Shown: piece by piece, positions 1,723 to 46,634 of the stretch
How positions within the stretch are numbered: position 1 is the stretch's first letter
How the letters are laid out: each line of letters begins with the position of its first letter
Source of the DNA: Vulcanimicrobiota bacterium
Lineage (GTDB): Bacteria; Vulcanimicrobiota; Xenobia; Xenobiales; QWHO01
Length of the DNA stretch: 64,000 nucleotides
Assembly (NCBI GenBank): GCA_039809865.1
Contig: JBDHVW010000023.1
Coordinates: 14,947 to 78,946, forward strand
Direction of reading: 5' to 3'
Notes under the pieces: generated by a model
Databases searched by the model: none
Seen by the model: the letters and a program-made list of their open reading frames with translations, nothing else
What the model was told of the DNA's origin: nothing
Made by a program: the position numbers and the translations under genes

Positions 1723-1810
1723 GGAAGTCCTCCCGCGTGTTTAAATCTGGCGGTATCCTAACCGCTCGGGAGGATCGGGTCGTAACAGACTTATGAACTT
1801 TAAGCTTTCT

Positions 1811-3292: not shown

Positions 3293-3300
3293 TCGGGGCG

Positions 3301-3810: not shown

Positions 3811-4031
3811 CGCGTACTTGACTCCTTTTCCATGGTACCCCGCTGTTCGCGGAACAAGTTCAAGCTTCCTGGCGGGCCGAGCGTTCCCCCTCGAAAGTCG
3901 CTCCAATCTACCGTCGCGGCTGGTAGATCGATCACTTCCTTGAATCCCCCGGGCCCTGTATCCTGTGTCCAGAAGATTCGACTTGAAGCCCGACGGATGC
4001 CCCCCCCGACCGTCGGGCTTCTCTCTTTCTC

Positions 4032-5972
4032 TCAGAGACTCCAACTGGCGCTGAGCATTCCGCCGGGAACCAGGTCGAGAGGGCGCAGGTTCGTTCCGGC
4101 CGCGTCGCACACGTGGAGCTGGCCATTGTGGTCGAGCACGATCTGCGTGCCATCCGGGCTCCAGGTCGGCTGGCCGATGTCGTCGCCAAAGGAAACCGGC
4201 AGGTTGGTGGCCGGACCCAGCAACCCCGGGCTGTAAGCCGCCGTGGCGATGGTTACGCCGGTGGCGTTCAGAAACAACACCCGGTCGCCAGCCGAGTTCA
4301 GGCGCGGGGCGTCGGCCTCGATTCCGAACGACTGGACCGCGCTCGTGTCCACATTGGTCTCGGTCAACTCCCAGCGGAAGGTCACGCCTCCCGTATCCAC
4401 GGGATGGGAGGCGAGAAAGCGCCGGTCGGAGCTGCTGGGCACCCAGTTGGCCTGCATGCTGCGGGACGGATTCAACCCATCCACCACCGGGTCGGGGCAA
4501 TAGTTGGAGTAGGACAGGAGGCCCACCTGAACGGGCGCCGCCCCGGTGAGGCGCGTCACCCAGTACTCGAGCTGGCGCGGCGTCTGGTTGAAGGTCGTGT
4601 AAACGACCTGCGTGCCGTCGGGCGTCCAGGAGGCTCCCACGATGGGCCCGGTGGCCACCGTCATGGGATGGCGGCCGTCGGCGTCCACGACGATCACGTC
4701 GGTTCCGCCCGGGCGAACGCTCAGAAAGGCCAGTTTGCTACCGTCCGGTGAAAATTCCGGATTGCACACCGAGGTGTAGCGACGCCGCGTGAGGCTGGTC
4801 CGATCGCTGCCGTCGGCATTGATCAGCTCGATCTCGGTGCCGTTGGCCCCCTGGAACGCGATGCGGCCGCGCGGAACCACGAGCACGCGCCCCCCCGCGC
4901 CGATGGTGGCCGGAACCGAGCCGCCGCGCTCGTCCACCACCCGGCAGGTGAGCGTGAAGATCTTTCCCTCGGATCCGGGTGGAGGAACCCATTCCCAGCG
5001 GCTGAGCCAGTTCCCGGCGGACTCGTCCCACACCATCCGCTGCGAGCCGGGATGCGAATAGGCGCCACCTGGCTCCCCGGGCGGGCCCTGAACGCTCCAG
5101 AGGCAGGCCAGGCGGTCTCCGTCCCTGTCGCTGGCGCGCACCACCAGGCTGAGGTGGCCGCCCGCCCCGACCGTGGCATCCACGCCTCCCGGCAGTCCAC
5201 TGACGATTGGCCTGGGCTCCACCTTCACGGGGCCGACCAGGGTCGGGTTCGCGTTGGCTCCCGCCAGGCTCAGCGAGGGGGGCGCCCCGGGCGGCGTGAC
5301 GAGAGGACGGGTCACGAGCTCCACCGGGCCTTGCGGGAGCAAACCGGAGCCCGTGCTGACCTTTCCCTCGGGAGACACGCTCAGCGTGACCGGGGCCTGC
5401 ACGCGCGTCAAGAGATGGGAGGGACGCCCCAGCGCGCTGCCCGCGCCAGCCTCGAGGGACGCACAGACCACCAGTCGAAAGGCCCCATCTACCAGCGGCT
5501 GCGTGGACAGGGCCGAGCCGTTGGGCAAGAAGACGATGACCGCGTCGCTCGCCTGGGGGCGGTTCCAGGCGGTCACGTCCAGCCCGGAGCCGGCGCAGTC
5601 GCGCTGGGTGTCCAGCCACTCCTCGGTGGTCCCGCCCGGCCAGTAACCCGCGAACAGGTAAGCGTTCGGGAACTCGCTGGCGAAGCTCCAGCGCTCCACG
5701 AAACGAGCCTGACCAAAACCACGGACCTTGTAGCAGCCCGTCGCGTGCCCCAGGGCTCCATTCTGGCTGGGGAAGGCGATCCCCACGGGCTCGCCCAGCC
5801 GCATCGCTTGCTCGCGGGCGGCGCTGAGGCGCCCCGCCAGGGCTTCGGACAGACCTTGCGTGTCGGCCTGGGAGCGCTGGTGTTGCGACGCCTGCAGCCC
5901 GAGGACTACCAGCGCGGCCAGGATGGCCACCACCAGCATGGTCTCGAGCAGCGAGGCTCCGCGACGTCTCAC
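4032..5972 (-). CDS. Prepilin-type N-terminal domain protein fused to TolB/WD40-like beta-propeller repeats (PilY1-like tip-adhesin candidate)
   Basis: N-terminus MRRRGASLLETMLVVAILAALVVLGL matches the class III (type IV pilin) leader/cleavage motif G|ASLLE with a hydrophobic helix. Repeated SPDGSKLAF, WTPDGTQVVY and WSPDGTQIVL units are typical of TolB-like propellers. ATGA-type coupling with the upstream gene (5969..5972). Confidence 0.7.
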   Translation of the reverse strand: MRRRGASLLETMLVVAILAALVVLGLQASQHQRSQADTQGLSEALAGRLSAAREQAMRLGEPVGIAFPSQNGALGHATGCYKVRGFGQARFVERWSFASEFPNAYLFAGYWPGGTTEEWLDTQRDCAGSGLDVTAWNRPQASDAVIVFLPNGSALSTQPLVDGAFRLVVCASLEAGAGSALGRPSHLLTRVQAPVTLSVSPEGKVSTGSGLLPQGPVELVTRPLVTPPGAPPSLSLAGANANPTLVGPVKVEPRPIVSGLPGGVDATVGAGGHLSLVVRASDRDGDRLACLWSVQGPPGEPGGAYSHPGSQRMVWDESAGNWLSRWEWVPPPGSEGKIFTLTCRVVDERGGSVPATIGAGGRVLVVPRGRIAFQGANGTEIELINADGSDRTSLTRRRYTSVCNPEFSPDGSKLAFLSVRPGGTDVIVVDADGRHPMTVATGPIVGASWTPDGTQVVYTTFNQTPRQLEYWVTRLTGAAPVQVGLLSYSNYCPDPVVDGLNPSRSMQANWVPSSSDRRFLASHPVDTGGVTFRWELTETNVDTSAVQSFGIEADAPRLNSAGDRVLFLNATGVTIATAAYSPGLLGPATNLPVSFGDDIGQPTWSPDGTQIVLDHNGQLHVCDAAGTNLRPLDLVPGGMLSASWSL

Positions 5973-6433
5973 CAGGTGCCCCCATCCTGGAAATGCACGA
6001 GTTGGAAGAGCGTGGGGCGCGCCGGGGAGAGGTCGAGGTCGGCGCTCAGTTGCACGCGCGCGGTGGGCTGATCGAGCGAGCCCAGCAGGCCCACCGAGGT
6101 GATTCGCATGAGGTCGTGGCTGTCACGCCAGCTCGCATCGAGCTGCACCTGGTAGAAGCCGAGCGGGCTGCCGTCCAACTCGGGGAGCTCCTCGCTGTAG
6201 CAGAACCGGGGCTGTCCGGCGGCCAGGGTAGGCGGGAAATCGGGATCGAGCGCGAGCTTGAGCCGTGCGTCCTCGAGGCCCGCCCAGGCCAGGGCTCGGG
6301 CCCGCTCGCCGGCCGTCAGGTCGGAGGCTCCGCGATAGCACTCCTTGCTCTGCTCGAACAGCCCCATCGCCAGCGAGAAGATGCAGACCGACATCAACAA
6401 AGTCACGATCAGCGCCGAGCCGCGTCGCGTCAC
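5969..6433 (-). CDS. Pilin-like protein with GspK/PilX-type N-terminus (no Glu at +5)
   Basis: GTG start at 6433 overlaps the TGA of the upstream gene (GTGA). N-terminus VTRRGSALIVTLLMSVCIFSLAMG gives a short basic leader, Gly, then a hydrophobic helix. Sits in an operon between two other pilin-like genes. Confidence 0.5.
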   Translation of the reverse strand: MTRRGSALIVTLLMSVCIFSLAMGLFEQSKECYRGASDLTAGERARALAWAGLEDARLKLALDPDFPPTLAAGQPRFCYSEELPELDGSPLGFYQVQLDASWRDSHDLMRITSVGLLGSLDQPTARVQLSADLDLSPARPTLFQLVHFQDGGTW

Positions 6434-6960
6434 GGGCGGGCCACCTCGGCCTGCAGCGTGACCACGCCGGCCCCTTCCTGCACCGAAAGGCGCACTTGCA
6501 TGAGGCCCGGCTCCAGCCAGGCGGCCGAGAGCCCGACCGACTCGGCCACCACCGAGCGACGCCCCTCGATCTCGCGCACCAGGTTGCGGTCCGGATCCAC
6601 GTAGAATCGCACGTTGTCCAGCGCCACGGCCGAAGGGTCGAAGCCCGTCCCGGAGGCCGGCAACCATTCCTGATTGGGCCGAGGGCGCAGCAGCTCGATC
6701 CGGCTGGCCGGAGCGCCCGTGGGCTCGAGGATCTGGTGAGCCTCCTGCAGCTCGAGACACAGCTGCGAGAGAGCGCGAGTCGATTCCAGGCGGCGATCCT
6801 GGCGCGAGTTGAACCGGAGAAACTCGGAGTAGCTCGCCAGCAGATTGGCGAGCAGGGCCATGACCAGCCCGAACAGCAGCATCGTAACGAGCGCCTCGGG
6901 GATCGTGAAGGCTCTACGGCCCAAGATCCACCACCGTCGTGCCAGAGAAGGTCCGGCCAA
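6430..6960 (-). CDS. Type IV pilin-like minor pseudopilin (GspI/J- or PilV/W-like)
   Basis: N-terminus ...RRAFTIPEALVTMLLFGLVMALLANLL is a prepilin-type N-terminal methylation-like segment. Overlaps both neighbours. Confidence 0.65.
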   Translation of the reverse strand: MAGPSLARRWWILGRRAFTIPEALVTMLLFGLVMALLANLLASYSEFLRFNSRQDRRLESTRALSQLCLELQEAHQILEPTGAPASRIELLRPRPNQEWLPASGTGFDPSAVALDNVRFYVDPDRNLVREIEGRRSVVAESVGLSAAWLEPGLMQVRLSVQEGAGVVTLQAEVARP

Positions 6961-7699
6961 AGTAGCTGGTGCTGGCCATCAGGCGTACCTGCCCGGGCCA
7001 CACCTGCCAGCCACCGGTGCGCAGCACCTTGAGCGCATTCTTGACGCGGACCTGGCGCCCGTCGCGGCTGATAGGCGGCAACAGGGTCGCGTTGCCGGTC
7101 ATGGGCACGACCGACCAGAAGAACATCGCGTCCACGGGCGCGCCGCCGGGCAGCAGCGCCGTGGCCCGGTAGTCGGCTTCCTGCTGTCCGCTCAGGGGGT
7201 TGGGCCCGCTCACCCGGTCGAGTCGGATGGTGAGGTCGTCGGCCGGGTCCAGACGGTTGGGCTCACTGATGAGCGTGGTCAGGCGCACCCGGTCGCGCGG
7301 ACCGTTCGCGCTCCAGGCCACTTCGACGGCGACCGGAAAGGCGGAGGCGGGGAAGCGCCGGGGATCCCCGGACGGGACTTCCAGGGAGGAAGCCGGGGAG
7401 AGAAGCTCGCGGGCGGGGCCGCGCTCGGTGAGGACGGTGAATCCAGGATGGTCAGGCCGTGTTTTGGAGCCTATCTTCGTCGACCAATCCGAGCTAAAAT
7501 TCGTGGAATTACGTGCCCAGAGCCGTAATTGGTCGAGCTCGGACCGCGCCAGTAAAGTCGCCTCCATCTGCCTTTGGGACCATCGGCGATAACCCAGAGC
7601 ACGATGGAAAGTGCCGACGAACATCAGCACAACGGCGGTCAAAAGGAAGATGGCCAGCACAACTTCAGAAAGCGACATCCCCCGCCATCGCCGCAGCAT
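6914..7699 (-). CDS. Type IV pilin-like minor pseudopilin (GspH/J-like)
   Basis: MLRRWRGMSLSEVVLAIFLLTAVVLMFVG matches G|MSLSEV (Gly, hydrophobic, Glu at +5). First gene of the minus-strand pilin operon. AT-rich putative promoter region 7700..7760 lies upstream. Confidence 0.65.
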   Translation of the reverse strand: MLRRWRGMSLSEVVLAIFLLTAVVLMFVGTFHRALGYRRWSQRQMEATLLARSELDQLRLWARNSTNFSSDWSTKIGSKTRPDHPGFTVLTERGPARELLSPASSLEVPSGDPRRFPASAFPVAVEVAWSANGPRDRVRLTTLISEPNRLDPADDLTIRLDRVSGPNPLSGQQEADYRATALLPGGAPVDAMFFWSVVPMTGNATLLPPISRDGRQVRVKNALKVLRTGGWQVWPGQVRLMASTSYFGRTFSGTTVVDLGP

Positions 7700-21193: not shown

Positions 21194-22282
21194 ATGAGCA
21201 CCGTTATCGCATATAATTCCGCACTTACCAATATGGCGCCGCCACGCGCGCGCCTGGTCTCGGCCCAGCAGACCGCCGCGACGCCCGTCACCGACGACGT
21301 CCAGCTGAGCGGAGGCAAGGCCGCCGAAGAGAAGCCGGAGGACAAGCCCGGCGTCTCCCTGGGCACGCAGATCGCCGCCGGCGTAGGCCTGGCGCTGGTC
21401 CTCACCGGCGCCGTGGCGGGCTTTACCGGCTCGATTCCGGCGATGGGCGCGCCCACCGCGATCACGCAGGTCCAGACTCGCGACGTGAAGGCCGTCGGCG
21501 ATGACGCCGCTGCCCTCATGAAAGACGTCGCCTCGCCCAGCCTGACCGACAACCTGACCGCCAACCAGGTGCGCAACCGCTACGGCAACGAGGTGGACGA
21601 CGTGCTGGGCCAGGCCAAGACGTTCGACCAGCTCAACGCCCATCTAGGGGAGGTCGGCCAGAAGCTGCAGGCCTACGCCGACAAGTTTCCTGAAGGTGGC
21701 TCGCTGGTCGAGAACGGCGCCCAGATCGGCATCGAGAAGGCGGACGGCAAGGTGACCGTCACCGTCCAGAACGCCGACGCCAGCGTGCAAGAGGCGGTGA
21801 TCAGCCGTCACGGCATCACCGTGAAGGAGCGCGACGCTCAGGGCACCACCACGACGCGGGAGGAGACAGCGCGCCAGGTCAAGGTCAACGCGGACGGCGT
21901 CACGATGACAGTCAACAAGATGACCGGGACCTTTGAGATGGCGACCCAGGAGGGCCCTCGCACTCAGATCAAGGTGACCGTCAGCGGCGCCTCGATCACC
22001 GAGCAGCGGCGAGAGACCATCTCGGGCTACGCCGGGATGATCTCGATCAATACGACCACCAAATACGACGTTCCGGAGACCTCCGTCATGGTCTACCCGC
22101 GCGTAGTGGTGACCGAGACCAAGACCACCGTCAGCGACGATGGTTTTGGCGCCAAGTCCACCACCAGCACCCGCACCGAGGTCTACGACAACGGCAGCAG
22201 CAAGACGTTCCAGAAAGGTCCCGACGGCAAGGAGATGATTCTCGAGTCGGACGGGCCCGCCATTCTGATCGCGGGACGCTGA
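21194..22282 (+). CDS. Hypothetical Thr-rich protein with one TM segment
   Basis: Non-biased composition. First gene of a co-oriented, tightly packed block ending at 28098. Confidence 0.5.
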   Translation: MSTVIAYNSALTNMAPPRARLVSAQQTAATPVTDDVQLSGGKAAEEKPEDKPGVSLGTQIAAGVGLALVLTGAVAGFTGSIPAMGAPTAITQVQTRDVKAVGDDAAALMKDVASPSLTDNLTANQVRNRYGNEVDDVLGQAKTFDQLNAHLGEVGQKLQAYADKFPEGGSLVENGAQIGIEKADGKVTVTVQNADASVQEAVISRHGITVKERDAQGTTTTREETARQVKVNADGVTMTVNKMTGTFEMATQEGPRTQIKVTVSGASITEQRRETISGYAGMISINTTTKYDVPETSVMVYPRVVVTETKTTVSDDGFGAKSTTSTRTEVYDNGSSKTFQKGPDGKEMILESDGPAILIAGR

Positions 22283-22295
22283 CAAACTCCAGGTT

Positions 22296-23699
22296 GTGAG
22301 GGTTTTTCAGCTCGACCTCCGCTCGTTGGCCATCCTCCGGATGGCCATCGGCTTTTTGGTGCTGTTGGATACCCTGCTGCGCGCGCGCGATCTCTCCGCG
22401 TTCTACACCGACGCCGGCGTCATCCCGCGCCTGGACCTGATCGAGTGGTCCTGGGGTGATCCGTGGCTTTGCCTGCACCTGGGAGGCTCCGGCTGGCTGT
22501 CGGCCGCCGTCCTGTTTGCTTTGACGGCGGCCGCGGCCGTGCAGCTGATGCGCGGCTGGCGCACGCGTTGGATGACGTTTGCCTGCTGGCTCTCTCTCAG
22601 CTCGCTCTACCAGCGCAATCCGCTGGTGAACGACCGCGGGGACCTGGAATTGATCCTCGTCCTCTTCTGGAGCCTGTTCCTGCCGCTGGGAGGTCGCTGG
22701 TCGGTCGACGCGCGCCGCGACGGAGCTCAGGAGGATCCGGTCGTGCTCAGCGCTGGCAGCGCGGCGATGCTCCTTCAGTTCGCGCAGATCTATGTGTTCG
22801 CGGCGCTGCTCAAGAACGGTCTTCCCTGGCTGCGAGGGGATGCCATGGAGCTCTCGCTGCGCAGCGCGCTCTTCTCGACTCCCCAGGGTTTATGGCTGAC
22901 CCGCTGGCCAGACCTGCTCAACACCCTGACGCACCCGGCCGTGGCCCTGGAGCTGCTCATCCCGTGCCTTTTGCTGTGCCCGCTGGCCAACGGTCAGGTC
23001 CGAAGCGTGGGGGTGTTGCTGCTTGTGGTGTTTCACACGCTGGTGGGGCTGTTCTTGCAACTGGGGATCTTTCCGCTCATCGGCGCGCTGTTACCACTGG
23101 GATTGCTGCCGGCCTGGTTCTGGGAGACCGTTGGCTGGCAGCGGCGGCTGGACCGCTGGTTCCCCGCCCCCGAGCGCCCCGGGCGGGCCGGGCGGCTTCC
23201 GGTTGCGGTCACGCTCTTCGTGCTGCTTTGCCTGGCTTACACCCTGGCCTGCAACCTCTTCATGGTGCGCGATCCCAACCCTCGTCTCATCCCCGACTGG
23301 CTGCGGCCCCTGGGCCGCAGCCTCCGGCTCGAGCAGCACTGGGATCTCTTCGCGCCGCTTCCCCCGCTGGACGGGTGGTTCGTGCTGCAGGCCGAGGTCG
23401 ACGGCCAGCCGGTCGACCTGTTGCGCGACGCCCCGGCCACCATGGATCGCCCGGCGGACCCCTCTGCCGTCTTTCCAGACCATCGCTGGCGGATGTTCAT
23501 GGTCTCGCTCCTTTTCGGAGGCGAGCATTTTCGGGGTAACTACGCGCTTTATCGGGCGCGCCTCTATCACCAGCGGCATCCCGAGGCTCATCTCGGTCGT
23601 CTGGAGCTGATTTTCGTGGTACAGTTAGTCGACGAGGACGGAATTCGTCTTGCTCCCCAGGTTCGTTCCCTGTGGAGCGGCGCATTTCCGACAAAATGA
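22296..23699 (+). CDS. HTTM-domain integral membrane protein (vitamin K-dependent gamma-carboxylase-like), paralog 1
   Basis: LDLRSLAILRMAIGFLVLLD...FYTDAGVIPR and ...NPLVNDRGDLELILVLFWSLFLPLGGRWSVDA match the HTTM pattern (D..SLA.fR..G, NH.YL...WSVDG of human VKGC). GTG start 14 nt after the previous stop. Confidence 0.75.
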   Translation: MRVFQLDLRSLAILRMAIGFLVLLDTLLRARDLSAFYTDAGVIPRLDLIEWSWGDPWLCLHLGGSGWLSAAVLFALTAAAAVQLMRGWRTRWMTFACWLSLSSLYQRNPLVNDRGDLELILVLFWSLFLPLGGRWSVDARRDGAQEDPVVLSAGSAAMLLQFAQIYVFAALLKNGLPWLRGDAMELSLRSALFSTPQGLWLTRWPDLLNTLTHPAVALELLIPCLLLCPLANGQVRSVGVLLLVVFHTLVGLFLQLGIFPLIGALLPLGLLPAWFWETVGWQRRLDRWFPAPERPGRAGRLPVAVTLFVLLCLAYTLACNLFMVRDPNPRLIPDWLRPLGRSLRLEQHWDLFAPLPPLDGWFVLQAEVDGQPVDLLRDAPATMDRPADPSAVFPDHRWRMFMVSLLFGGEHFRGNYALYRARLYHQRHPEAHLGRLELIFVVQLVDEDGIRLAPQVRSLWSGAFPTK

Positions 23700-23796: not shown

Positions 23797-25590
23797 ATGA
23801 GCATAAGTTTGCAGTTCTGGCGCACGAAACGCGGTTTCGGGCTGGTGGTCGTGCTGGGCATCGCAGCCGTGCTGGCCATCTTCACCGGTGCTATCGGTGC
23901 CAACGCCGCCATGAACCTCCGCAGCGTCACGCACGAGAGCCAGACGGACCAGGCCCACTACGCGGCTTTCACGGGCATCCAGCTCTCGATGGCCTGTATC
24001 AAGGAGCCTCCGCCCGGACGTGAGGATTGGCTCGAAGTCGACCCCAGCATCGTCGTCCAACTGAGTGAGAACACCAGCTGCACCGCCCGCACCTATCACA
24101 ACCTCGAAGGCCTGGCGGGAGCGGTAGCGGTGGCCGACGATGGGACCAAAATCCCGGTCAACAACTTCTACATCGTGGCCGTTGGCACGGTGGCTCAGGC
24201 TGTCAGCGCCAGCAGCTCCTCGATGGGCGCCCTGGTGGCCCCCCTGTTCCCGCCCATCGACCACGCCGTCTTCGGTAATTCCGAGGTCCACGTGGCCGGG
24301 CTGGTCGACCACTTCAACTCCAACGACATGGGTACTGCTCCCGACCCGGACTGCACCGTGGCCCTGGCCCCGGTGGGAACCAACTCGATCAACCTCAGCG
24401 ATTTCGATCTCGGCCCGACCACGCACGTGGATGGGGACCTGCACCTGGGTGAAGGGGCGTCGGCCGCCGACGTCAGCGCTCTGGCCGGCGTCGCCGCCTC
24501 CGACATGGCGGGCGGCGGCGGCTCAACCACCACGGGTGGAATGACGAGCACGACGACCACCACGACGGGAACGACCACCGGGGCAACCACGGGAACCACG
24601 ACCGGAGCCACCACGGGCGCCGCAGCGTCCTCGGTCGACACCGGCACGATCTCGACGGGCACCGCCAGCAGCCTCCCGGCCCAGAAGCAGATGCCCAACC
24701 TCGCGGCGCCGACCGCCGCCAGCACCATCGTTCCCAGCACGGGCGGATTCAGCCTCAACGGCAGCCGCAGCTACGTCATCAACGGCAACCTGGTCCTGAA
24801 CAACGCAACCATCACGGTGAACGGCACCGGCAACGCGCTGCTGTTCGTCAACGGCAACATCAGCATCACCGACAGCCCCAACCTGACGGTTCCGATGCGC
24901 CCCGAGCGCCTCAAGATTTACTGCCTCGATCCCAACGGCACGTTCACCATGGTGAACAGCAAGGGCTACTTCGTGGTGGCCGGCAACGGGAACTTCAACG
25001 TCAACGTGGGTACCGATGCCGAGCTGTTCGGCGCCATCCTGGCCGATAAGGTCACTGTGAATGCGGGCAGCGCCGTGCACTTCGACGTGGCGCTGGCCGA
25101 CCCGACTCGCGTGGGCTCGGTCAGCGATTTCTTCATCACGGGTATCACCGCCGCCGGTGGTGAGGCCGTGCCGCACGCCGCCCTGATCGCTCCGGGAGCG
25201 CTGGCCGGAGGGGCTGGAACGGCCGCGGCCGCGACCGGAACGACCGGGACGACCGGGACGACCGGAACGACCACCGGGGCGGCCACGACCGGAACCGCCA
25301 CGACCGGAACCGCCACGACCGGAACCGCCACGACGGGAACGACGACCGGGGGCACCGGAATGACCGCCGGCGGGACCACCGGAATGACCTCTACCGCCGG
25401 GACCACCGGAACCACCGGGACCGCGACCACGGGAACGACCACAGGAACGGCCACCACCGGAACCGCGACGACCGGAACCGCCACCACCGGAACCGCCACC
25501 ACCGGCACGGCCACCACCGGAACCACCAGCACTTGCGGCTGCGGCTGCGGCTGTGGCGGCGGGAGCATGGCGATGGACATGGCCCTCTAG
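23797..25590 (+). CDS. Large pilin-like (GspK/PilX-type leader) secreted protein with Thr/Gly-rich repeats and C-terminal (Cys-Gly)4 tail
   Basis: ATG 23797 with GGAGGAGGGG 6 nt upstream. N-terminus MSISLQFWRTKRG|FGLVVVLGIAAVLAIF has a basic leader ending in Gly plus a hydrophobic helix and no Glu+5, as in GspK. Long TTTGATTG / TGTATTG runs. Ends ...TTSTCGCGCGCGGGSMAMDMAL. Confidence 0.6.
   Translation: MSISLQFWRTKRGFGLVVVLGIAAVLAIFTGAIGANAAMNLRSVTHESQTDQAHYAAFTGIQLSMACIKEPPPGREDWLEVDPSIVVQLSENTSCTARTYHNLEGLAGAVAVADDGTKIPVNNFYIVAVGTVAQAVSASSSSMGALVAPLFPPIDHAVFGNSEVHVAGLVDHFNSNDMGTAPDPDCTVALAPVGTNSINLSDFDLGPTTHVDGDLHLGEGASAADVSALAGVAASDMAGGGGSTTTGGMTSTTTTTTGTTTGATTGTTTGATTGAAASSVDTGTISTGTASSLPAQKQMPNLAAPTAASTIVPSTGGFSLNGSRSYVINGNLVLNNATITVNGTGNALLFVNGNISITDSPNLTVPMRPERLKIYCLDPNGTFTMVNSKGYFVVAGNGNFNVNVGTDAELFGAILADKVTVNAGSAVHFDVALADPTRVGSVSDFFITGITAAGGEAVPHAALIAPGALAGGAGTAAAATGTTGTTGTTGTTTGAATTGTATTGTATTGTATTGTTTGGTGMTAGGTTGMTSTAGTTGTTGTATTGTTTGTATTGTATTGTATTGTATTGTATTGTTSTCGCGCGCGGGSMAMDMAL
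25201..25562. repeat. Intragenic microsatellite-like tandem repeats: degenerate 15-bp ACCGGAACCGCCACG units and (TGCGGC)4
   Basis: Direct reading of 25260..25560. Encodes (TGTAT)n and CGCGCGCG. Confidence 0.7.
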
Positions 25591-25600
25591 GAGCCTGGTG

Positions 25601-26053
25601 ATGCGGCGCCGCGGACATTCGCTCCTCGAAGCGGTCGTGGCGGCCTCGGTTTTCGCCATCGTAGCGGTGGCCCTCACGGGCATCTGGTTCATGTACTACT
25701 CCGCCCTGTCCAAGTCGGCCAATACCCTGGCTGCCAATCACCTGGCCCGTACCGTGGTGGAGGGAGCCATCGCCAACGGCTACGACTGGATCGTCACCCA
25801 GCAGCAGCAGACCGACCTGGTCTACACGCTGGAGCGGCGCGTCCGCAGCCGCAGGGCCAACAGTGAATATCACGTCGATTGGGTGGCTATCACCAATGCC
25901 GGCCAGTCGATCACCACCATGCTCCCGGCCGAGGTCTGCCGCATCTCGGTTACGGTGAAGTGGAAAGACGATACCGGCAACCAGATCGATGCCGGTCCCT
26001 ACAATCACCAGGTGGTTTACTCCACCTGGATCTACCGGAGCGCGTCGCAGTGA
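25601..26053 (+). CDS. Type IV pilin-like minor pseudopilin (GspH/I-like, 150 aa)
   Basis: MRRRGHSLLEAVVAASVFAIVAVAL matches G|HSLLE with Glu at +5. Starts 10 nt after the previous stop. Confidence 0.7.
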   Translation: MRRRGHSLLEAVVAASVFAIVAVALTGIWFMYYSALSKSANTLAANHLARTVVEGAIANGYDWIVTQQQQTDLVYTLERRVRSRRANSEYHVDWVAITNAGQSITTMLPAEVCRISVTVKWKDDTGNQIDAGPYNHQVVYSTWIYRSASQ

Positions 26054-26745
26054 GGAAGCGCAGCCTCGGTATGTCCCTGATGGAGATCCTGGTCGCCATC
26101 TTCGTGATGGGGATCGTCGTCTGGGGGGCCTACGAGATCTTCCGGGAAGGCATTCAATACTTCAAGACCAATCAGAGGGCCAGCGACGCCCAGCGACACT
26201 GCCTCAACCTGCTGAGCCAGGTCTGCCTGCAGGTCACCAATGCCAAAGAGGAGCTCGTCAAGAACTACGACGCTCCCGGCGTGGTCCCCGGAGTCTGCTT
26301 CGCCTCGCCCCTGGCCGACGACGGCAAGGTGCACTACGACCTGACCAACGGCAATCAGGTCTTCTGGCAGAAGATCGTCTGCTATTACCTGGATACGACT
26401 TCCGGTAAGGTCTACCGCAAAATCGAGAAGATTCCCGACACGGTGGCGGGCGAGACGGGCAACAGCGACATGGGTCAGGTGGAGGCGCTGCTCGCCACCT
26501 CCACCACGAACTACTTCCAATCGCTCAACACCAACGCGGTCACCCTGATCGCCGAGGACATCGTGGCCTTCAAAGTCAGCGCCTACGATCCCGCGACCAG
26601 CGGGGTCGTGCCGGGGGCCGGGCCCAGCGCCGGCGCGGGCGGTGGACGCGCGTTCGATATCGTGGTGGAAGCCGGGAACCCCACGGACATGGGGCCCAAC
26701 GGCTACTACCTCAAGCTCGATTCCCGCGTCGCTCCCCGAGGCTGA
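26050..26745 (+). CDS. Type IV pilin-like minor pseudopilin (GspJ/PilW-like, 231 aa)
   Basis: GTG 26050 overlaps the TGA 26051..26053. VRKRSLG|MSLMEILVAIFVMGIVV. Confidence 0.7.
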   Translation: MRKRSLGMSLMEILVAIFVMGIVVWGAYEIFREGIQYFKTNQRASDAQRHCLNLLSQVCLQVTNAKEELVKNYDAPGVVPGVCFASPLADDGKVHYDLTNGNQVFWQKIVCYYLDTTSGKVYRKIEKIPDTVAGETGNSDMGQVEALLATSTTNYFQSLNTNAVTLIAEDIVAFKVSAYDPATSGVVPGAGPSAGAGGGRAFDIVVEAGNPTDMGPNGYYLKLDSRVAPRG

Positions 26746-28098
26746 TTGGCCGTTGGCGAACGTCTAAAAGCTCCGTTTACCCTGGATCTGCGGTCCCTGG
26801 CGCTGCTGCGTATGGGTCTGGGTGGGCTGGTCGTGCTGGACGTGCTGCTGCGTCTGCGCGATCTGACGACCTTCTATACCGACGCGGGCGTGCTGCCCCG
26901 GGCCGTGCTGCTGCGCCAGACGTGGCTCAATCCGTCCTATGACCTGTTCCTGAGCACCGGAACCACCGAGGGGATGCTGCTCCTGTTCCTGCTCGTGGCC
27001 CTGGCGGGTGGCTGCCTCGCGGTGGGCTGGCACACCCGCTGGAGCGGCCTGGCGACCTGGTATCTGGTCAGCTGCGTGCAACTGCGCAACCCCATGGTGC
27101 TGGACGGGGGCGACGATCTTTTGCGCTTGATGCTCTTCTGGACCCCCTTTCTACCGCTGGCGGCCCGCTGGTCGCTGGACGCGCGGCGCCATCCCGAGTG
27201 GCAACGGTTGCCCGACGGCTACTTCAGCGTGGCCACGGTGGGTTACGTGTTGCAGGTTTGCTGCCTCTACGGCTTCGCCGGGCTGCTCAAGTCGGATCCG
27301 GTCTGGCGCGTCACGGGCGACGCCCTCTACTACGCGCTCAGTGTCGACCAGTTCGCCACCGGGCTGGGGATGAAGCTGACCGCCTATCCCGGCCTGCTGC
27401 GCCCATTGACCTTTGGGGCCCTGGCGATCGAGCTGACGGTGCCGGTCTTGCTGCTCCTGCCCTGGGGCACGCGCTGGCTCCGCTGGCTGGCGCTCATCCT
27501 GGCCTGGTCGCTGCACCTTGGGATCGCGGCCACGATGCACCTGGGCCTCTTCATGCCGATCTGCTGCGTCTGCCTGCTCGGGTTGCTGCCCCTGCGCGGC
27601 CAGCCCGGCTCGACCGAGCCGGTTCCCCCGGCCTACCGGCTCGGCTGGGCCACGCAGACTCTGCTCGGGATGATGTGCGTCTTCATTCTGGGAATGAACG
27701 TGCGCAGCCTCGACCCGCATCCGCCGCGCATGAATCGCATTCTGGTCTGGGTGGCGGCGCTTTCTCACGAGGGCCAGGGATGGTATCTCTTTGCCCCTCA
27801 CCCGCTCACCGACGACGGCTGGTTCTGGGTGCACGGTCGCGGCGCCGACGGCCGCGAGGTGGACGTGCTGGGGGGAGCCGACAAGCCGGCCATGGTGTCG
27901 GCCCAGTTTGCCAACCAGCGCTGGCGGCGCTGGCTGCAGAATCTCAAAGAGGGCTACCCGGACCTGCGGGCCAGCTATCTGCGGCAAGTGGCGCGGACGC
28001 GCGGGTTGAGCCACGTGACGCTGACCTACATGGAGGAGCAGACCCCTCCACCCGGGGGGCAGGCCACGGTCGTGCTAAAAGTTCTTGATCAGCTCTAG
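26746..28098 (+). CDS. HTTM-domain integral membrane protein, paralog 2
   Basis: TTG start immediately after the pilin stop. About 50% identical to paralog 1 over the N-terminal 150 aa (LDLRSLALLRMGLGGLVVLD...FYTDAGVLPR...RNPMVLDGGDDLLRLMLFWTPFLPLAARWSLDA). Confidence 0.75.
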   Translation: MAVGERLKAPFTLDLRSLALLRMGLGGLVVLDVLLRLRDLTTFYTDAGVLPRAVLLRQTWLNPSYDLFLSTGTTEGMLLLFLLVALAGGCLAVGWHTRWSGLATWYLVSCVQLRNPMVLDGGDDLLRLMLFWTPFLPLAARWSLDARRHPEWQRLPDGYFSVATVGYVLQVCCLYGFAGLLKSDPVWRVTGDALYYALSVDQFATGLGMKLTAYPGLLRPLTFGALAIELTVPVLLLLPWGTRWLRWLALILAWSLHLGIAATMHLGLFMPICCVCLLGLLPLRGQPGSTEPVPPAYRLGWATQTLLGMMCVFILGMNVRSLDPHPPRMNRILVWVAALSHEGQGWYLFAPHPLTDDGWFWVHGRGADGREVDVLGGADKPAMVSAQFANQRWRRWLQNLKEGYPDLRASYLRQVARTRGLSHVTLTYMEEQTPPPGGQATVVLKVLDQL

Positions 28099-29283
28099 CG
28101 TGGGCAAGATGGCGCTGAGCACGATGAAACCCACCACCAGCCCCATCCCGGCCATCAGCAGGGGTTCGAGCATGGCCGCCAGGTCGGAGAGCGCCAGCTC
28201 GACCTCCTCGTCGTAGATGCGCGCCGCGTAGCGCACCATCTCGGTCAGGCCGCCGGTCTCCTCGCCCACGCTCACCAGGTAGATGGCGGCTCGCGGCAAG
28301 ATGGGCACGCTCTCGAGCGACTGCCCCAGGTCGAGGCCGTCGATCATCTGCTTGCGGGCCACCATCATGCATTCCTTCACCCAGGCGTTGCCCGAGACGT
28401 TGGCGGCGCGCGCCATCGCGTCCACCATCGGCATGCCCGCGTCGAGCATGGTGGCCAGCGAGTAGAGGATGCGCGTGGTGGCCATCTTCTGCATGACCGG
28501 CCCGAAGATGGGGATCTCCATCGGCAGTCGAGTCAGCGCGCTGTCGAGCCGGGGGTTGTTCTTCAGCCAGCGCCGCAGCCAGGGCTTCCCCAGCCACAGA
28601 CCCACGAGGCCGAGACCGCACAGGATCACGCCCGGGAGCATCCAGGTGCGCAAGGACAACAGCATTCGGGTGGGCCACGGGAGAGTCACCTTGAGACTCG
28701 TGAAGAGCGGCTGGATCATCGGCAACAGGAAGAAGACGAAGAAGAAGACGCTGGCCATCGACACCAGGAACAAGATGGCCGGGTAGGTGAACGTGGCCAC
28801 CAGCTTCTTCTGCAGCTTGAGATTCTTCTCGAGCAGGTCGGCCAGCCGGTTGAGCAGCTCCTGGAGCTGGCCCGATTTCTCGCCGGTCTCCACCAGCGAG
28901 CAGTAGACCTCGGAGAAGACCTGGGGATGGTTGCGCAGGGCCCGCGAGAACATCACCCCGCCGTGGACCCGCGCGGTGACGTCTTCGAGGATCTTGCGCA
29001 GCCCCCGGTCTTCCAGGCTCTCGGTGAAAAAGTTCAAGGCCCGATACAGGGGGATCCCGGCGTCGAGCATGGCGGCGAGCTGACGGGTGAAGGTGGAAAG
29101 CTCTTCCAGATTGGCTCTCGGGGCGCCTCGGCCGGGGATGAGCCCGCGAAGTTGCTGTTTCAGTTCTTCGGTCGGTGAGCTCACCTCTTGAATTTCGGCC
29201 CGTCGCGCCACTTTCCCTTGAAGGAAACCTTGGCTGCTTCGGCCGGTTGGATGCTTCATTCCACCGAAAGAGGTAGCCATCAT
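28075..29283 (-). CDS. Type II secretion / type IV pilus platform protein GspF/PilC family
   Basis: Two T2SSF-like repeats (LSTFTRQLAAMLDAGIPLYRAL...; LYSLATMLDAGMPMVDAM...) and 3 TM segments. Start ambiguous (ATG 29283, 29280 or 29259). Convergent 24-nt overlap with HTTM paralog 2. Confidence 0.8.
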   Translation of the reverse strand: MMATSFGGMKHPTGRSSQGFLQGKVARRAEIQEVSSPTEELKQQLRGLIPGRGAPRANLEELSTFTRQLAAMLDAGIPLYRALNFFTESLEDRGLRKILEDVTARVHGGVMFSRALRNHPQVFSEVYCSLVETGEKSGQLQELLNRLADLLEKNLKLQKKLVATFTYPAILFLVSMASVFFFVFFLLPMIQPLFTSLKVTLPWPTRMLLSLRTWMLPGVILCGLGLVGLWLGKPWLRRWLKNNPRLDSALTRLPMEIPIFGPVMQKMATTRILYSLATMLDAGMPMVDAMARAANVSGNAWVKECMMVARKQMIDGLDLGQSLESVPILPRAAIYLVSVGEETGGLTEMVRYAARIYDEEVELALSDLAAMLEPLLMAGMGLVVGFIVLSAILPTLELIKNF

Positions 29284-29581
29284 GTTGAAAACAGCTCTGA
29301 TCTTCGGCGTCGTCCTGTGCACCCTGGTCGTGGGCCCGGCCCAGGCCGAGGGGGTGAACCAGCGAGAACGCCACCAGGGAAGCCGGATCTACGGGGGCAT
29401 CCAGAATGGAGAGCTTTCCCAGGGAGAAGCGCGCCGCGTCTCCCGCGACCTGGCCCACGTGCAGCGCGTCGAGGATCGCTTCCGCCGGTCGGGCTCCGGC
29501 TACAGCGTTCGTGAGCGCTGCGCCACCCAGGCCATGCTGAACCGCAGCAGCAACCGGATCTATCGTCTCAAGCACAACTAG
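29282..29581 (+). CDS. Small secreted protein (99 aa)
   Basis: AAGAGG RBS 9 nt upstream, signal peptide MLKTALIFGVVLCTLVVGPAQA. Confidence 0.5.
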   Translation: MLKTALIFGVVLCTLVVGPAQAEGVNQRERHQGSRIYGGIQNGELSQGEARRVSRDLAHVQRVEDRFRRSGSGYSVRERCATQAMLNRSSNRIYRLKHN

Positions 29582-42277: not shown

Positions 42278-42892
42278 ATGCACGTCCGTCCTCTGGCCGC
42301 GTCGCCGCTGCGTGAGCGCGCCAAGAAGCTCTATGTCGAGATTCCTCCCGAGCCGGCCAAACCAGCCGAACTGGTGAAGCTAGAGCGTCAGCGGACGGCT
42401 TTGCGGGTCGGCGCCGCCGGAGTGGCCGCGCTGCATCTCGCCCCCGCCCTGCTGGGAAACCCCTGGGGAAGCTACACCGGAATGTTGGGCGCGACCGTGT
42501 CCAGCGTCTTTCTGGCCGCCGCCGCGGGTGCCGCGGTGGAGGATAAGCGACCCAAAGGGGACTGGCCGATCCCCGTGGCTCTGTTCGGCACCATGGCCGT
42601 CAGCGCGGCCCTGGGAGTGGCCGCCTGTTTCTATGGCAACCCCGTCCTCTGGACCCTGGACCTGGCCGTGGGAGTGACCGGGATGGTGCTGGGAACGCGT
42701 CTGCTCGAACAAGCCAGCGACTTTGACCACAGCCGCCTGCTGAGCGGCTACGAGAAGGCCCACGCCGCCTGGGAGCTGGACGCGGCCAAAGCTCTCGAGC
42801 CCCGTGGAGCGGCCGGCCCGCGCGAGATGGGCGAGCGGGACGGCGCGGTCATGATCGGCGGGGTGCGCCTCCCGAAGAAATCCAGTTCTTGA
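42278..42892 (+). CDS. Hypothetical membrane protein (204 aa)
   Basis: TGAATG stop-start junction with the previous gene, 3 hydrophobic segments. The 3' end overlaps the convergent GT2 gene by 44 nt, so the end is uncertain. Confidence 0.45.
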   Translation: MHVRPLAASPLRERAKKLYVEIPPEPAKPAELVKLERQRTALRVGAAGVAALHLAPALLGNPWGSYTGMLGATVSSVFLAAAAGAAVEDKRPKGDWPIPVALFGTMAVSAALGVAACFYGNPVLWTLDLAVGVTGMVLGTRLLEQASDFDHSRLLSGYEKAHAAWELDAAKALEPRGAAGPREMGERDGAVMIGGVRLPKKSSS

Positions 42893-43574
42893 GCGCTTTG
42901 AGTCGGCTCTTGAGCAGCGTCCCGTAAATCCGGATCGAGTCGCTCCAGAGATTGAAGTGAGAGCTCTCGTTCTCGCCGATGTAGACGGTCTGGATGGTGA
43001 CCTGGCGCAGCGGACGCTTGCGCAGGTAGAGCAGCACCTCGAGCTCGTACTCGTAGCCGTTGGACTCGATCGTGCTCAACTCGGGCAGCCAGACGCGCGG
43101 GAGCCCGCGCAGTCCCGTCTGGGTGTCGCGAATGAAGCGTCCGACCAGCAGGAAGAAGACCACGCGGGTCAGCACGTTGCCGGCCATGCGCACCAGCGGA
43201 ACGCCCTTGCGGGTGAAGCTGCGCACGCCCAGCACCAGGGTCTCGGGGTGCTTCCAGAGCTCCTCGGCGCACAGCCAGGCGTCCTCCGCCCGGTGCTGGC
43301 CGTCGGCGTCCAGCGTGACCACGCCCACCTCGTCGGCCGGAGCGGTGTCCCAGAGGTAGCGCTGCCCCGTCTTCAGGGCCGCGCCCTTCCCCTGGTTCTG
43401 CCTGTGCACCAGCAAAGTGACCCCCTCGAGTCGATCGAAGATGGCCTGGCACTCGGGCTTGCTGCCGTCGTTCACCACGACGATGCGCGAGAAACCGACC
43501 TTTTTGACGGCTTCCACGACCTCGAGCAACATCTCGTTGGGCTGGTAGGCGGGGATCAGGGCGGCGACGGACAT
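42849..43574 (-). CDS. GT2 family glycosyltransferase, polyprenyl-phosphate sugar synthase-like (DPM1/ArnC-like)
   Basis: AALIPAYQPNE...VVVNDGSKPEC...VVTLDADGQH (DXD region). Confidence 0.85.
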   Translation of the reverse strand: MSVAALIPAYQPNEMLLEVVEAVKKVGFSRIVVVNDGSKPECQAIFDRLEGVTLLVHRQNQGKGAALKTGQRYLWDTAPADEVGVVTLDADGQHRAEDAWLCAEELWKHPETLVLGVRSFTRKGVPLVRMAGNVLTRVVFFLLVGRFIRDTQTGLRGLPRVWLPELSTIESNGYEYELEVLLYLRKRPLRQVTIQTVYIGENESSHFNLWSDSIRIYGTLLKSRLKALKNWISSGGAPRRS

Positions 43575-45224: not shown

Positions 45225-46634
45225 ATGAAGCGCTTCTGGGCCATGATGGCGGTACTCACGACTCTGCGGTTGCTGGTGATCGGCCGCGTCGGATTAGCTC
45301 AGGAGGAAGCCTACCACTGGAACTTCGCGCAGCACCCGGACTTTTCGTATTTCGATCATCCCCCGATGGTTGGCTGGCTCATCGCGCTCTCGCCCGGCAG
45401 CAGCGAGTTCTTCGTGCGCTTGCCCGCGGTGCTGCTGTTCGTGGCCTCCAGCTGGTTCATCTTCGACCTGGGGCGCCGCATGTTCGGCGAGAACGTCGGG
45501 CTGGGCAGCGCGCTGCTGCTCAACTTCATGCCGATCTTCGCCCTGTTCAGCGCGGTGATGATGCCCGATTCGCCCCATCTGCTGGCCTGGTGCGCTGGAT
45601 TGTGGGCCGGCTGGCGTCTGGTCGAGTCCGAGGACCAGCGCTGGTGGATCGTCCTGGGGATCATCACCGGCCTTGGCATGCTCTCGAAGTATCCCGCCCT
45701 GCTCATTCCGCTGCCGGCGTTCTTGCTGGTCCGGCGCCGGGGCGTCTTCTTGTGCGGCGTCATCGCGCTGTTGCTGTTCTCGCCCGTGCTCTACTGGAAC
45801 GCCACCCACGATTGGGCTTCCTTCCTGTTCCAGGGCACCCAGCGCTTCGGCGAGGCCACCCGCCCCGGCCATCTCTGGCGCTCGTGGGTGTTCCAGTTGG
45901 GACTGGCCACGCCTGCGGGGCTGGCGCTCATCCTCTGGGCTCACTACCGGGCTTTGCGGCGCTGGCACGACCGGCGGTTCGCCTATCTCTCGCTGGCCTC
46001 GCTGCCGTTCTTGACCTTGATGGCGGTGCTCTCGCTGCAGCGACTGGTGCAACTCAACTGGCCGTTGCCCGGTTACGTGGGCGCTGTGGTGCTGGTGGTG
46101 GCTCTGCTGGCCGAAGGCTGGCCCTCCACGCGCCTGGCGGTTGTGGCGCTGGCCTTCTGGGGAGGCCTGCTGAGCTATCTGGTCTGGTTGCCGGCCCTGG
46201 TCCCGATCGCTGCCTTTAATCCGGCCGATACCTTCGACGGTTGGGACGAGATGGCCCGGCACGCGGCCTCCGTGCGCGCCTCCATGGCGCGCCCCGAGCA
46301 TACCTTCTACCTGGGCAGCGGCTATCCGCAGGCCAGCGAGATCGCCTATTATCTGCGCGAGCCCCACCGCTGTCTGGCCCAGAACGCGGTCGGCCTGCCC
46401 GGGGCCGTCTCCTTCCAGTTCTGGGAGCAGCCCGACGACTTTGCCGGTTGGGATGCCGTGGTGGTCACCGAAGGGAGCCGATTCGTGATCCCCCGAGAAG
46501 CTCTGGACCCCTATTTCGAGCGGGTCGAGGAGGGGGAAACTTTCGTGGTGGAAAGAGCTGGAAGCCCCCTGCGCCGATGCACCTTCTATCGGGCCTACGG
46601 GTATCGTCCCCCCAAGAGCGAAAAAGACAGGTGA
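45225..46634 (+). CDS. GT39/GT83-like polyprenyl-phosphate-dependent glycosyltransferase (ArnT / PMT family)
   Basis: About 11 TM segments. The N-terminal AYHWNF...DHPPMVGWLIAL region resembles the PMT/ArnT N-terminal loop motif. Confidence 0.75.
   Translation: MKRFWAMMAVLTTLRLLVIGRVGLAQEEAYHWNFAQHPDFSYFDHPPMVGWLIALSPGSSEFFVRLPAVLLFVASSWFIFDLGRRMFGENVGLGSALLLNFMPIFALFSAVMMPDSPHLLAWCAGLWAGWRLVESEDQRWWIVLGIITGLGMLSKYPALLIPLPAFLLVRRRGVFLCGVIALLLFSPVLYWNATHDWASFLFQGTQRFGEATRPGHLWRSWVFQLGLATPAGLALILWAHYRALRRWHDRRFAYLSLASLPFLTLMAVLSLQRLVQLNWPLPGYVGAVVLVVALLAEGWPSTRLAVVALAFWGGLLSYLVWLPALVPIAAFNPADTFDGWDEMARHAASVRASMARPEHTFYLGSGYPQASEIAYYLREPHRCLAQNAVGLPGAVSFQFWEQPDDFAGWDAVVVTEGSRFVIPREALDPYFERVEEGETFVVERAGSPLRRCTFYRAYGYRPPKSEKDR

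Follow-up and report, generated by a model that had tools for sequence, protein, structure and literature searches.

The closest described counterparts of the protein reported here are pilins of the filament tip. ComZ combines a GspK-like pilin domain with a solenoid resembling ice-binding proteins and fits only at the tip of the fibre (PMC6561018), and the same pairing of domains is found in the cyanobacterial PilX 'tip plug' pilins (2026 preprint). Among membrane proteins of the HTTM family, the crdG gene of the linaridin cluster links a bacterial HTTM protein to a peptide, by a mechanism that is not established (PMC9927463), and MloH, the carboxylase of malonomycin biosynthesis, is presented as an HTTM protein acting on a peptide in a 2026 bioRxiv preprint that cites it. 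Here we describe a locus in which a protein resembling the tip pilins stands between two HTTM proteins. It lies in a stretch of 64,000 nucleotides (the window) of contig JBDHVW010000023.1, from an uncultured soil-type bacterium of the class Xenobia in the little-studied phylum Vulcanimicrobiota/Eremiobacterota (relatives carry it too), and centres on the gene at 23797-25590, which encodes a large pilin with a conserved Cys-Gly tail. To our knowledge, bacterial HTTM proteins, which are related to the human vitamin-K-dependent gamma-carboxylase (GGCX), are very numerous and hardly any has a known substrate.

The large pilin is the second gene of a compact cassette of five, in the order HTTM-A, large pilin, small pilin, small pilin, HTTM-B:

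22296-23699, forward strand: HTTM-A, polytopic membrane protein with the GGCX fold, upstream member of the cassette (Pfam HTTM E = 1.1e-13, 51.9 bits against a cut-off of 27.7; clade A of the tree described below).
23797-25590, forward strand: large minor pilin, putatively of the tip, ComZ or beta-solenoid PilX type, with spacer and Cys-Gly tail (translation of 597 amino acids (aa) and a stop codon).
25601-26053, forward strand: small minor pilin 1, 150 aa, leader ending RRG and followed by HSLLE, with Glu at +5 (Pfam N_methyl 22.3 bits against a cut-off of 21.2); it follows the large pilin in every locus.
26044-26745, forward strand: small minor pilin 2, about 230 aa, leader ending KRSLG and followed by MSLME, with Glu at +5; kept in every locus.
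26746-28098, forward strand: HTTM-B, membrane protein with the GGCX fold, downstream member of the cassette (Pfam HTTM E = 3.1e-10, 40.5 bits against a cut-off of 27.7; clade B).

We lean towards a reading that seems to us a little likelier true than false, in which the large pilin is a tip pilin of the ComZ/PilX type and its tethered C-terminal module is a substrate or docking element of both cassette HTTMs. An earlier note, made from the sequence of the window, had suggested among other things that the tail might be a substrate of the flanking HTTM enzymes. This is its best supported part: conservation of the tail, which no other short segment of the protein equals, joint travel of the cassette and co-variation of HTTM and tail types all argue for it, without amounting to proof.

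The open reading frame (ORF) of the large pilin is genuine, with the pilin leader lacking Glu at +5, the Thr/Gly repeats and the CGCGCGCGGGSM tail. A strong Shine-Dalgarno-like sequence, GGAGGAGGGG, stops 6 nt upstream of its ATG, and its product, which ends ...TTSTCGCGCGCGGGSMAMDMAL, is made up as follows:

23797-23835, forward strand: prepilin-type leader, aa 1-13, ending KRG before Phe, then a helix without Glu at +5 (direct reading; RGF(A/G)L kept in an alignment of 13 sequences).
23836-24531, forward strand: pilin-like domain, a long N-terminal helix (aa 14-69 in the AlphaFold2 (AF2) model) and a beta-sheet.
24535-24639, forward strand: internal disordered Thr/Gly-rich insertion, aa 247-281, private to the window protein (predicted local distance difference test (pLDDT) <50; 24-bp and 9-bp repeats at 24544-24617).
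24664-25167, forward strand: triangular beta-solenoid of the DUF7305 or ice-binding-protein type (Pfam DUF7305 and predicted structure).
25195-25533, forward strand: disordered Thr/Gly spacer, aa 467-579, with degenerate 15-bp and 9-bp tandem repeats (Tandem Repeats Finder (TRF); perfect copies; pLDDT <50).
25534-25569, forward strand: conserved tail core, C580-G-C-G-C-G-C-G-G-G-S-M591 (13-sequence alignment; codon comparison).
25567-25587, forward strand: short Met-rich terminus, MAMDMAL, too short and polar for a membrane span (S-M-x-M-x-(K/E/Q) pattern kept).

Relatives of the large pilin keep the tail. A word-indexed search returned four of them, of which the three close ones (56-66% identical, one from a Candidatus Xenobia metagenome-assembled genome (MAG), phylum Vulcanimicrobiota) all end GGCGC(C)GCGGGSM..., and an exhaustive profile search of 1.8 billion representatives gathered 185 members of the family. 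In the alignment of 13 proteins, which share 32-69% identity with the query, six columns of the tail (G581, G585, C586, G587, G589, S590) show no variation, and two more (G583, C584) are kept in at least 90%; G-C-G-C-G-x-G-S-M is (nearly) invariant even in relatives 32-36% identical. The codons of the tail differ synonymously between genomes (TGC/TGT for Cys, GGC/GGG/GGT/GGA for Gly), and therefore selection acts on the peptide and not on a DNA microsatellite. The earlier note had proposed searching databases for the tail, and the search finds it conserved in pilin relatives and, in addition, in several families of small peptides.

Among the closer relatives the tail takes four forms: (CG)1-5-GGS-Met-x-Met-(K/E), the type of the window protein; (CG)n-C-L-x4-Q-C-x; CC-x-D-(Y/F)-x-CGPP-x-C-(M/H)-(L/I)-(Y/W); and a Cys-less form, G(n)-S-M-x-M-K. 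Relatives have between 1 and 5 CG units, and the S-M-x-M-x-(K/E/Q) pattern persists even in the Cys-less relatives P0015, P0017, P0019 and P0045. Distant, shorter members of the family have neither spacer nor tail. Each locus contains exactly one tail-bearing ORF, the motif being present on no other ORF of any locus; in the window the tail pattern occurs once, against 0 of 100 shuffles. A degenerate pattern, TGYGGNTGYGGNGGNGGNWSNATG, scanned on genome contigs with Ser coded as WSN, was too permissive: its matches, at least 120, are nearly all chance in GC-rich DNA, and among the matches listed the only real relative is a Xenobia MAG contig (L065). Searching metagenome contigs with the 13-sequence alignment gave at least 7 related loci.

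These data bear on the possibility that the Thr/Gly runs and (TGCGGC)n are neutral slippage products or assembly artefacts of a GC-rich MAG, with the HTTM genes adjacent by coincidence. We consider this very improbable. It draws on the degenerate tandem repeats with their few perfect copies, and on an exact look-up of the large pilin in the public protein collection that gave no record under 8 alternative starts, as did the homology search, though HTTM-B is present there. On the other side, the tail is kept at the protein level while its codons change synonymously, in genomes and metagenomes that were assembled independently of one another, the linker-plus-tail architecture is family-wide and the cassette is kept in unrelated contexts. 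For the tail and the cassette, protein-level conservation and recurrence effectively refute an artefact; where the earlier note had allowed for one, or for an ORF without homologs, homologs were found, with tail and cassette conserved. The record of HTTM-B in the public collection is 100% identical (P0160; NCBI and Logan, on a 96-kb contig), unlike the large pilin, whose repeat-rich gene is possibly broken, differently called or filtered in public records.

About 15 loci supplied the gene-context evidence. Those from Xenobia are syntenic across the whole region, which on its own says little. More telling are L126, L127 and L130, in which the large pilin is ~31-32% identical (tblastn) and the flanks are unrelated, yet the same five genes stand in the same order, the upstream HTTM being orthologous to the upstream gene of the window and the downstream HTTM to its downstream gene. 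Partial cassettes on shortened contigs (L131, L134 and L136) agree with this order, and orthologs of HTTM-A lie upstream of the large pilin in L001, L003, L004, L126, L127, L130, L131 and L137. The two ORFs downstream of the large pilin have prepilin N-termini of the G/xxxxE kind, so that the trio looks like a minor-pilin priming/tip complex. In the PDB, the profile of small pilin 2 matches solved pilins in the N-terminal helix only, and sequence and profile searches with small pilin 1 returned nothing meaningful, so that these comparisons assign neither small pilin to GspI/GspJ or PilV/PilW. Small pilin 2 has three candidate start codons: GTG at 26044, GTG at 26050 and ATG at 26071.

Cassette contents and tail forms also bear on whether the tail might serve at the C-terminus as a signal for sorting or anchoring. 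In that case a protease, of the CPBP/Rce1 type or another, would remove the Met-rich end and a Cys would be lipidated or otherwise attached, by analogy with MYXO-CTERM/myxosortase or CAAX processing. The succession of globular domain, low-complexity spacer and short Cys motif does resemble known signals (Haft preprint), tails of the third form end C-(M/H)-(L/I)-(Y/W), like a CAAX box, and an Rce1-like gene (CPBP/CAAX-protease family) lies within the cassette in L126 (12969-14048, forward strand) and beside it in L139 (3276-3839, reverse strand), that is, in 2 of ~15 loci. The L139 gene accompanies a tail that ends in a CAAX-like C-H-L-Y. However, tblastn found no Rce1-like (CPBP) protease gene in the window or in the other loci, and the tail includes neither a transmembrane segment nor an Arg-rich cluster, its motif being followed by just 4-15 residues that are polar or Met-rich. 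Moreover, the pilin is already anchored and sorted via its N-terminus, and there is one tailed protein per locus, whereas such signals normally mark many proteins per genome. We therefore hold a role in sorting or anchoring, along either analogy, to be quite unlikely.

The genes that do accompany the tail are the two HTTMs. Both proteins match Pfam HTTM above threshold and share the GGCX fold, which places them in the HTTM/GGCX family. A profile of 14 cassette HTTMs matches human GGCX (E = 2.6e-8), and their invariant Lys (K173 in HTTM-A) aligns with K218 of GGCX; the equivalent Lys of HTTM-B, K182, is invariant in 40 homologs. K218 is the catalytic base of GGCX, and His160 is another of its catalytic residues. 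The AF2 model of HTTM-B has a pLDDT of 94.7, and in a Foldseek comparison with the PDB its sole matches at E ≤ 0.001 were GGCX chains (best E = 2.7e-8, TM 0.55), over ~480 aligned columns, so that the match covers a region beyond the membrane domain. By sequence and model, the cassette HTTM proteins look like enzymes. The start of HTTM-B is uncertain and may lie near 26812, because the public protein P0160 has 428 aa. Membership of the SdpB family (TIGR04033) was rejected for both flanking proteins (24.6 and 28.6 bits against an NCBIfam cut-off of 178.4).

In a neighbour-joining tree of the cassette HTTMs, the upstream genes (clade A) are apart from the downstream genes (clade B), and the two clades follow different parts of the tail. 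A clade-B HTTM is present in 10/10 loci with a Cys tail and a visible downstream region, including L130 with its single Cys, versus 0/2 Cys-less loci. A clade-A HTTM is present in 8/9 loci with a GGS-Met tail and in 0/2 loci without GGS-Met. The loci with the third tail form, L135 and L139, whose tails have no GGS-Met element, possess clade B only, and the Cys-less locus L137 possesses clade A only.

The carrier of the tail combines a pilin N-terminus with a solenoid. It begins MSISLQFWRTKRG followed by FGLVVVLG, with Gly at -1, Phe at +1 and Val at +5, and the mature protein starts with FGLVVVLGIAAVLAIFTG, a hydrophobic helix. A short basic leader ending in Gly (...KRG before FGLVVVLGIAAVLAIFTGAIG) and a hydrophobic helix of at least ~20 residues mark it as a type IV pilin or pseudopilin, although the Pfam N_methyl model does not match it. 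The earlier note was right that the leader lacks Glu at +5: this residue is V, F, I or M, never Glu, in 13/13 aligned relatives. In the AF2 model aa 290-457 are a confidently folded beta-solenoid, and Pfam DUF7305 (PF23981) matches aa 327-435 with 41.4 bits against a cut-off of 27, which assigns the protein to this family; the homologs P0001-P0004 bear the same precomputed domain. As modelled, a pilin fold with a triangular beta-solenoid resembling ice-binding proteins assigns it to the ComZ or beta-solenoid PilX class, and the solenoid is presumed to be an apical 'plug' or adhesin domain. PDB sequence (phmmer) and profile searches with the large pilin returned nothing meaningful.

The label 'GspK-like' used in the earlier note holds by analogy, through the ComZ-type pilin domain, and fails for GspK proper, in both insertion domain and operon context. 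Likewise, the structure prediction it had called for, with a GspK/PilX fold in mind, yields a PilX/ComZ-like pilin plus solenoid and no GspK insertion domain. The model for GspK proper (NF037980/T2SSK) gives 23.2 bits against a cut-off of 130, over aa 12-71 only, with no T2SSK Pfam hit, and of a gsp operon (GspG, H, I, J, secretin, ATPase) the locus offers only the two small pilins and a lone GspF/PilC-like gene on the opposite strand.

In the mechanism that we propose, the large pilin would be the apical subunit of a three-protein minor-pilin priming/tip complex with the two small Glu5-bearing pilins; for a GspK-like pilin domain carrying an ice-binding-protein-like beta-solenoid, the sole fitting place would be the filament tip. 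Its disordered, freely evolving spacer presents a short conserved module, (G)n-(C-G)1-5-G-G-S-Met-x-Met. Held in the cytoplasmic membrane by its N-terminal helix, the prepilin would expose the tail on the outer face, the side on which GGCX-type active sites lie. There the HTTMs may modify the tail before the pilin joins the filament, HTTM-B acting at its Cys-Gly portion and HTTM-A at, or by way of, its GGS-Met portion, and the modified tail would then travel outward with the pilus tip, held by its tether. Candidate chemistries are thiol oxidation or cross-linking, carboxylation, dehydration/thioether formation and cleavage between GGS and M.

Several points weigh against this proposal. The tip location is suggested by fold homology as its sole basis, and genes for an ATPase, a secretin or a major pilin are absent from the window. 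The cassette HTTMs do not conserve H160 of GGCX, an invariant Gly-Asp standing at the aligned position, and genuine gamma-carboxylation is therefore unlikely. L138, with a Cys-less GGS-Met tail, shows no HTTM on its 6.7-kb contig, and L005, whose encoded relative is 27% identical and lacks such a tail, nevertheless has a pair of HTTM genes, on a separate branch. When the Xenobia loci are merged into one lineage, clade B accompanies tail Cys in 7/7 versus 0/2 (Fisher p ~0.03), a co-variation that comprises about 12 loci and roughly 9 independent lineages with no phylogenetic correction; judged from these sequences, the association is suggestive only. Finally, the HTTM genes could serve the membrane handling or assembly of the pilin instead of its modification.

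The tail motif is also found outside pilins. A profile of the 21-residue tail (first sequence padded), searched against 5.8 billion proteins, gave as its best matches not pilins but peptides of 50-60 aa ending GGGGCGCGGGSIL, with E down to 5e-5. Their conserved leader reads ...Y-x-E-P-K-V-L-A-S-Y-x-K-E-E-L-E-E..P-H-G.., and the family comprises P0280-P0300, P0303, P0304, P0311-P0318, P0326 and P0339-P0341, P0314 coming from a Deltaproteobacteria MAG. Members of a second family have a twin-arginine (TAT) signal peptide and then ...GGGGCGCGGGSI, with ...YGGGGCGCGGGS(I) almost directly after the signal (P0302, P0310, P0333, P0347, P0349 and P0352; further members are P0363, P0364, P0366, P0369 and P0371). 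Two more small families share this Cys-Gly motif, of the MLKNADEIRAAV... and MPRADGTTG...CGCGCGSM... types. No Pfam or NCBIfam model matches the first three small-peptide families, and searches of viral contig and plasmid collections for small CGCGGGS-ending peptides were negative. The motif thus ends several families of small peptides too and is therefore a portable module.

Several of these small-peptide families, that of the GGGGCGCGGGSIL peptides among them, look in their primary structure like precursors of ribosomally synthesized and post-translationally modified peptides (RiPPs). Along the same lines, the tail module, (G)n-CGCG-(G)n-S-[M/I]-[M/L], may be a RiPP-like core peptide that became joined to a protein of the pilus tip and is rewritten by the HTTMs, an idea that we put forward tentatively and think rather doubtful. 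Its products would be, for example, thioether, dehydro, carboxylated or thiol-derived heterocyclic structures, and the same enzyme-motif pair might also make free peptides (the 'EPKVLASY...GGGGCGCGGGSIL' and TAT-signal families).

The tail profile also matches FeoB-associated Cys-rich membrane proteins (PF12669), which have a related GCGCGCG motif. This likeness, together with the conserved C-x-C and M-x-M spacing, speaks for an unmodified tail acting as a ligand-binding or redox module on a tether, either a soft-metal site, for instance one for Cu(I), or an arm that exchanges disulfides through its CXC. Periplasmic proteins use Met-rich motifs to bind Cu(I), and in yeast Erv2p a flexible C-terminal Cys-Gly-Cys arm shuttles disulfides. 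The HTTMs would then do other work, membrane chaperoning or extraction of Glu5-less pilins. Such an account leaves unexplained why HTTM type tracks tail type and why the cassette has two dedicated GGCX-fold proteins with the K218-equivalent Lys; free thiols beyond the cytoplasm would oxidise, and a Cys count of 1-5, with none in some relatives, is a poor fit to a defined metal site. We judge both the metal or redox role and the alternative work for the HTTMs to be unlikely.

In the proposal of a modified tip pilin, the Thr/Gly runs serve as tether. They are disordered spacers, clearly fast-evolving in length and composition. The repeat segments (aa 247-281 and 467-579) make up about one quarter of the protein, not its second half as had been stated, and the folded solenoid lies between them. 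The degenerate 15-bp tandem repeats and the TGCGGC repeat encoding the tail, both reported in the earlier note, were recovered by TRF as a 15-bp array at 25270-25532 (17.3 copies, 70% match; sub-periods 9, 24, 27 and 30 bp) and as TGCGGC x4.8 at 25534-25562. Perfect tandem copies exist of 15 bp (x3.5 at 25282 and x2.3 at 25471), 9 bp (x2.9 at 25240) and TGCGGC (x3.3 at 25534). The insertion at aa 247-281 sits in the loop joining pilin domain and solenoid and is missing from the three closest homologs, P0001-P0003, which indicates low-complexity expansion at two independent sites in the gene.

The spacers of homologs are TG-, SG- or Pro/Ala-rich (Pro/Ala-rich in P0001) and unalignable in the 13-sequence alignment, and the C-terminal extension past the HFD motif of the solenoid measures 71-167 aa. 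The repeats are translated, since homologs retain the conserved tail, in frame, behind quite different linkers. As all repeat units are multiples of 3, slippage alters length and causes no on/off phase variation. The suggestion of a slippage-prone variable number tandem repeat (VNTR) therefore stands on an evolutionary scale, where homolog linkers vary and perfect copies exist, and falls for phase variation. For the VNTR comparison, exact look-up recovered L001=L002 and L003=L128=L129 from different samples, and these are uninformative because the sequences are identical, flanks included. A PMT_2-family protein mannosyltransferase-like gene (45225-46634, forward strand) and a family-2 glycosyltransferase (42849-43574, reverse strand) lie ~17-20 kb downstream; they could in principle glycosylate the Thr-rich spacers, and they show no linkage to the cassette in other loci.

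One further gene adjoins the cassette:

28075-29322, reverse strand: platform protein of the GspF/PilC type, its gene running convergently to the cassette (Pfam T2SSF E = 4e-57; the NCBIfam models GspF and PilC match below their equivalog cut-offs).

It is the sole core type IV filament machinery gene nearby, and its 3' end overlaps that of HTTM-B convergently by 24 nt (28075-28098). The gene adjoins the cassette in the Xenobia loci too, and in L139 it follows HTTM-B on the same strand. Directly upstream of HTTM-A, 21194-22282 (forward strand) encodes a protein of 362 aa that has a single predicted membrane helix and matches no family, kept at the same position in all Xenobia loci (55-61% identical) and absent from more distant cassettes. 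The rest of the window holds housekeeping genes and a separate pseudopilin operon at 4032-7699 (reverse strand), with G/xxxxE prepilin N-termini on 6914-7699, 6430-6960 and 4032-5972, the last of which encodes 646 aa with regions of the GspH-like and PD40 beta-propeller types; this operon is conserved in L001 (1440-5098). On the contig of L138, three tandem paralogs of the large solenoid pilin occupy 1135-6746, the third cut by the contig end. A promoter/terminator scan gave matches at chance level only.

Literature searches for HTTM with pilin, for DUF7305 and for the motif string found no papers. The core protein adds a member to a known class, and its spacer-plus-Cys-Gly tail and the pairing with HTTMs are, as far as the literature searched shows, undescribed. 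The compact, portable cassette pairs two HTTMs with one obvious candidate substrate, a 12-residue Cys-Gly-Ser-Met tail, on an interpretable pilus-tip protein, which makes the role of bacterial HTTM enzymes directly testable. If the proposal is true, an enzymatically modified, tethered tip peptide would be a new way to functionalise type IV filaments. Should the RiPP-like idea be true, the filament would bear, on a flexible line, a 'hook' that is built post-translationally and is reactive or binds metal, and the cassette would constitute a new post-translational modification system, in which a class of protein substrates would be defined for bacterial HTTM enzymes for the first time. A wider system akin to natural products is hinted at by several small-peptide families that share the C-terminal motif and have no annotation.

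Taken together, the large pilin shares with ComZ of Thermus thermophilus (PDB 6qvi) and with PilX the pairing of a GspK-like pilin domain and an ice-binding-protein-like solenoid. It differs in its long disordered spacer, Cys-Gly tail and linked HTTM genes, none of which is mentioned in the ComZ and PilX papers cited here; there is no sequence-level match of either to the large pilin, and no competence or motility pilus genes lie near the window cassette. Its likeness to GspK lies in the lack of Glu at +5 and in the first ~60 residues, which match; in place of the alpha-helical insertion domain of GspK, a beta-solenoid is inserted.

The tail itself recalls C-terminal sorting signals and peptide cores. 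MYXO-CTERM-type signals with an invariant Cys are tripartite and are defined by a transmembrane segment and an Arg-rich cluster (Haft preprint). MYXO-CTERM, CGP-CTERM, JDVT-CTERM and Synerg-CTERM likewise have a spacer and a short C-terminal motif with a conserved Cys, processed by Rce1-like myxosortases, whereas the carrier here is a pilin and its constant partners are HTTMs, not CPBP proteases. Membership of the MYXO-CTERM type was rejected, with only 7 residues (MAMDMAL) after GGS here and 4-15 in relatives. Linaridin-type maturation, with an HTTM, an alpha/beta-hydrolase and a small precursor, was rejected as well: no cassette contains an alpha/beta-hydrolase gene, and the carrier is a 597-aa pilin. 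In Gly/Cys/Ser-rich RiPP cores like that of microcin B17, Cys and Ser are each preceded by Gly in a poly-Gly context, as in the tail; YcaO or McbBCD-type genes are absent from the cassette, and the motif here forms part of a structural protein of the pilus. Among GGCX and the bacterial HTTM enzymes (MloH, CrdG and SdpB), the bacterial proteins are encoded together with peptides on which they are thought to act; the flanking HTTMs have the GGCX fold and the K218-equivalent Lys. Those GGCX/HTTM systems act on a small peptide or a Gla domain, whereas the presumed substrate here is the tail of a 597-aa pilin.

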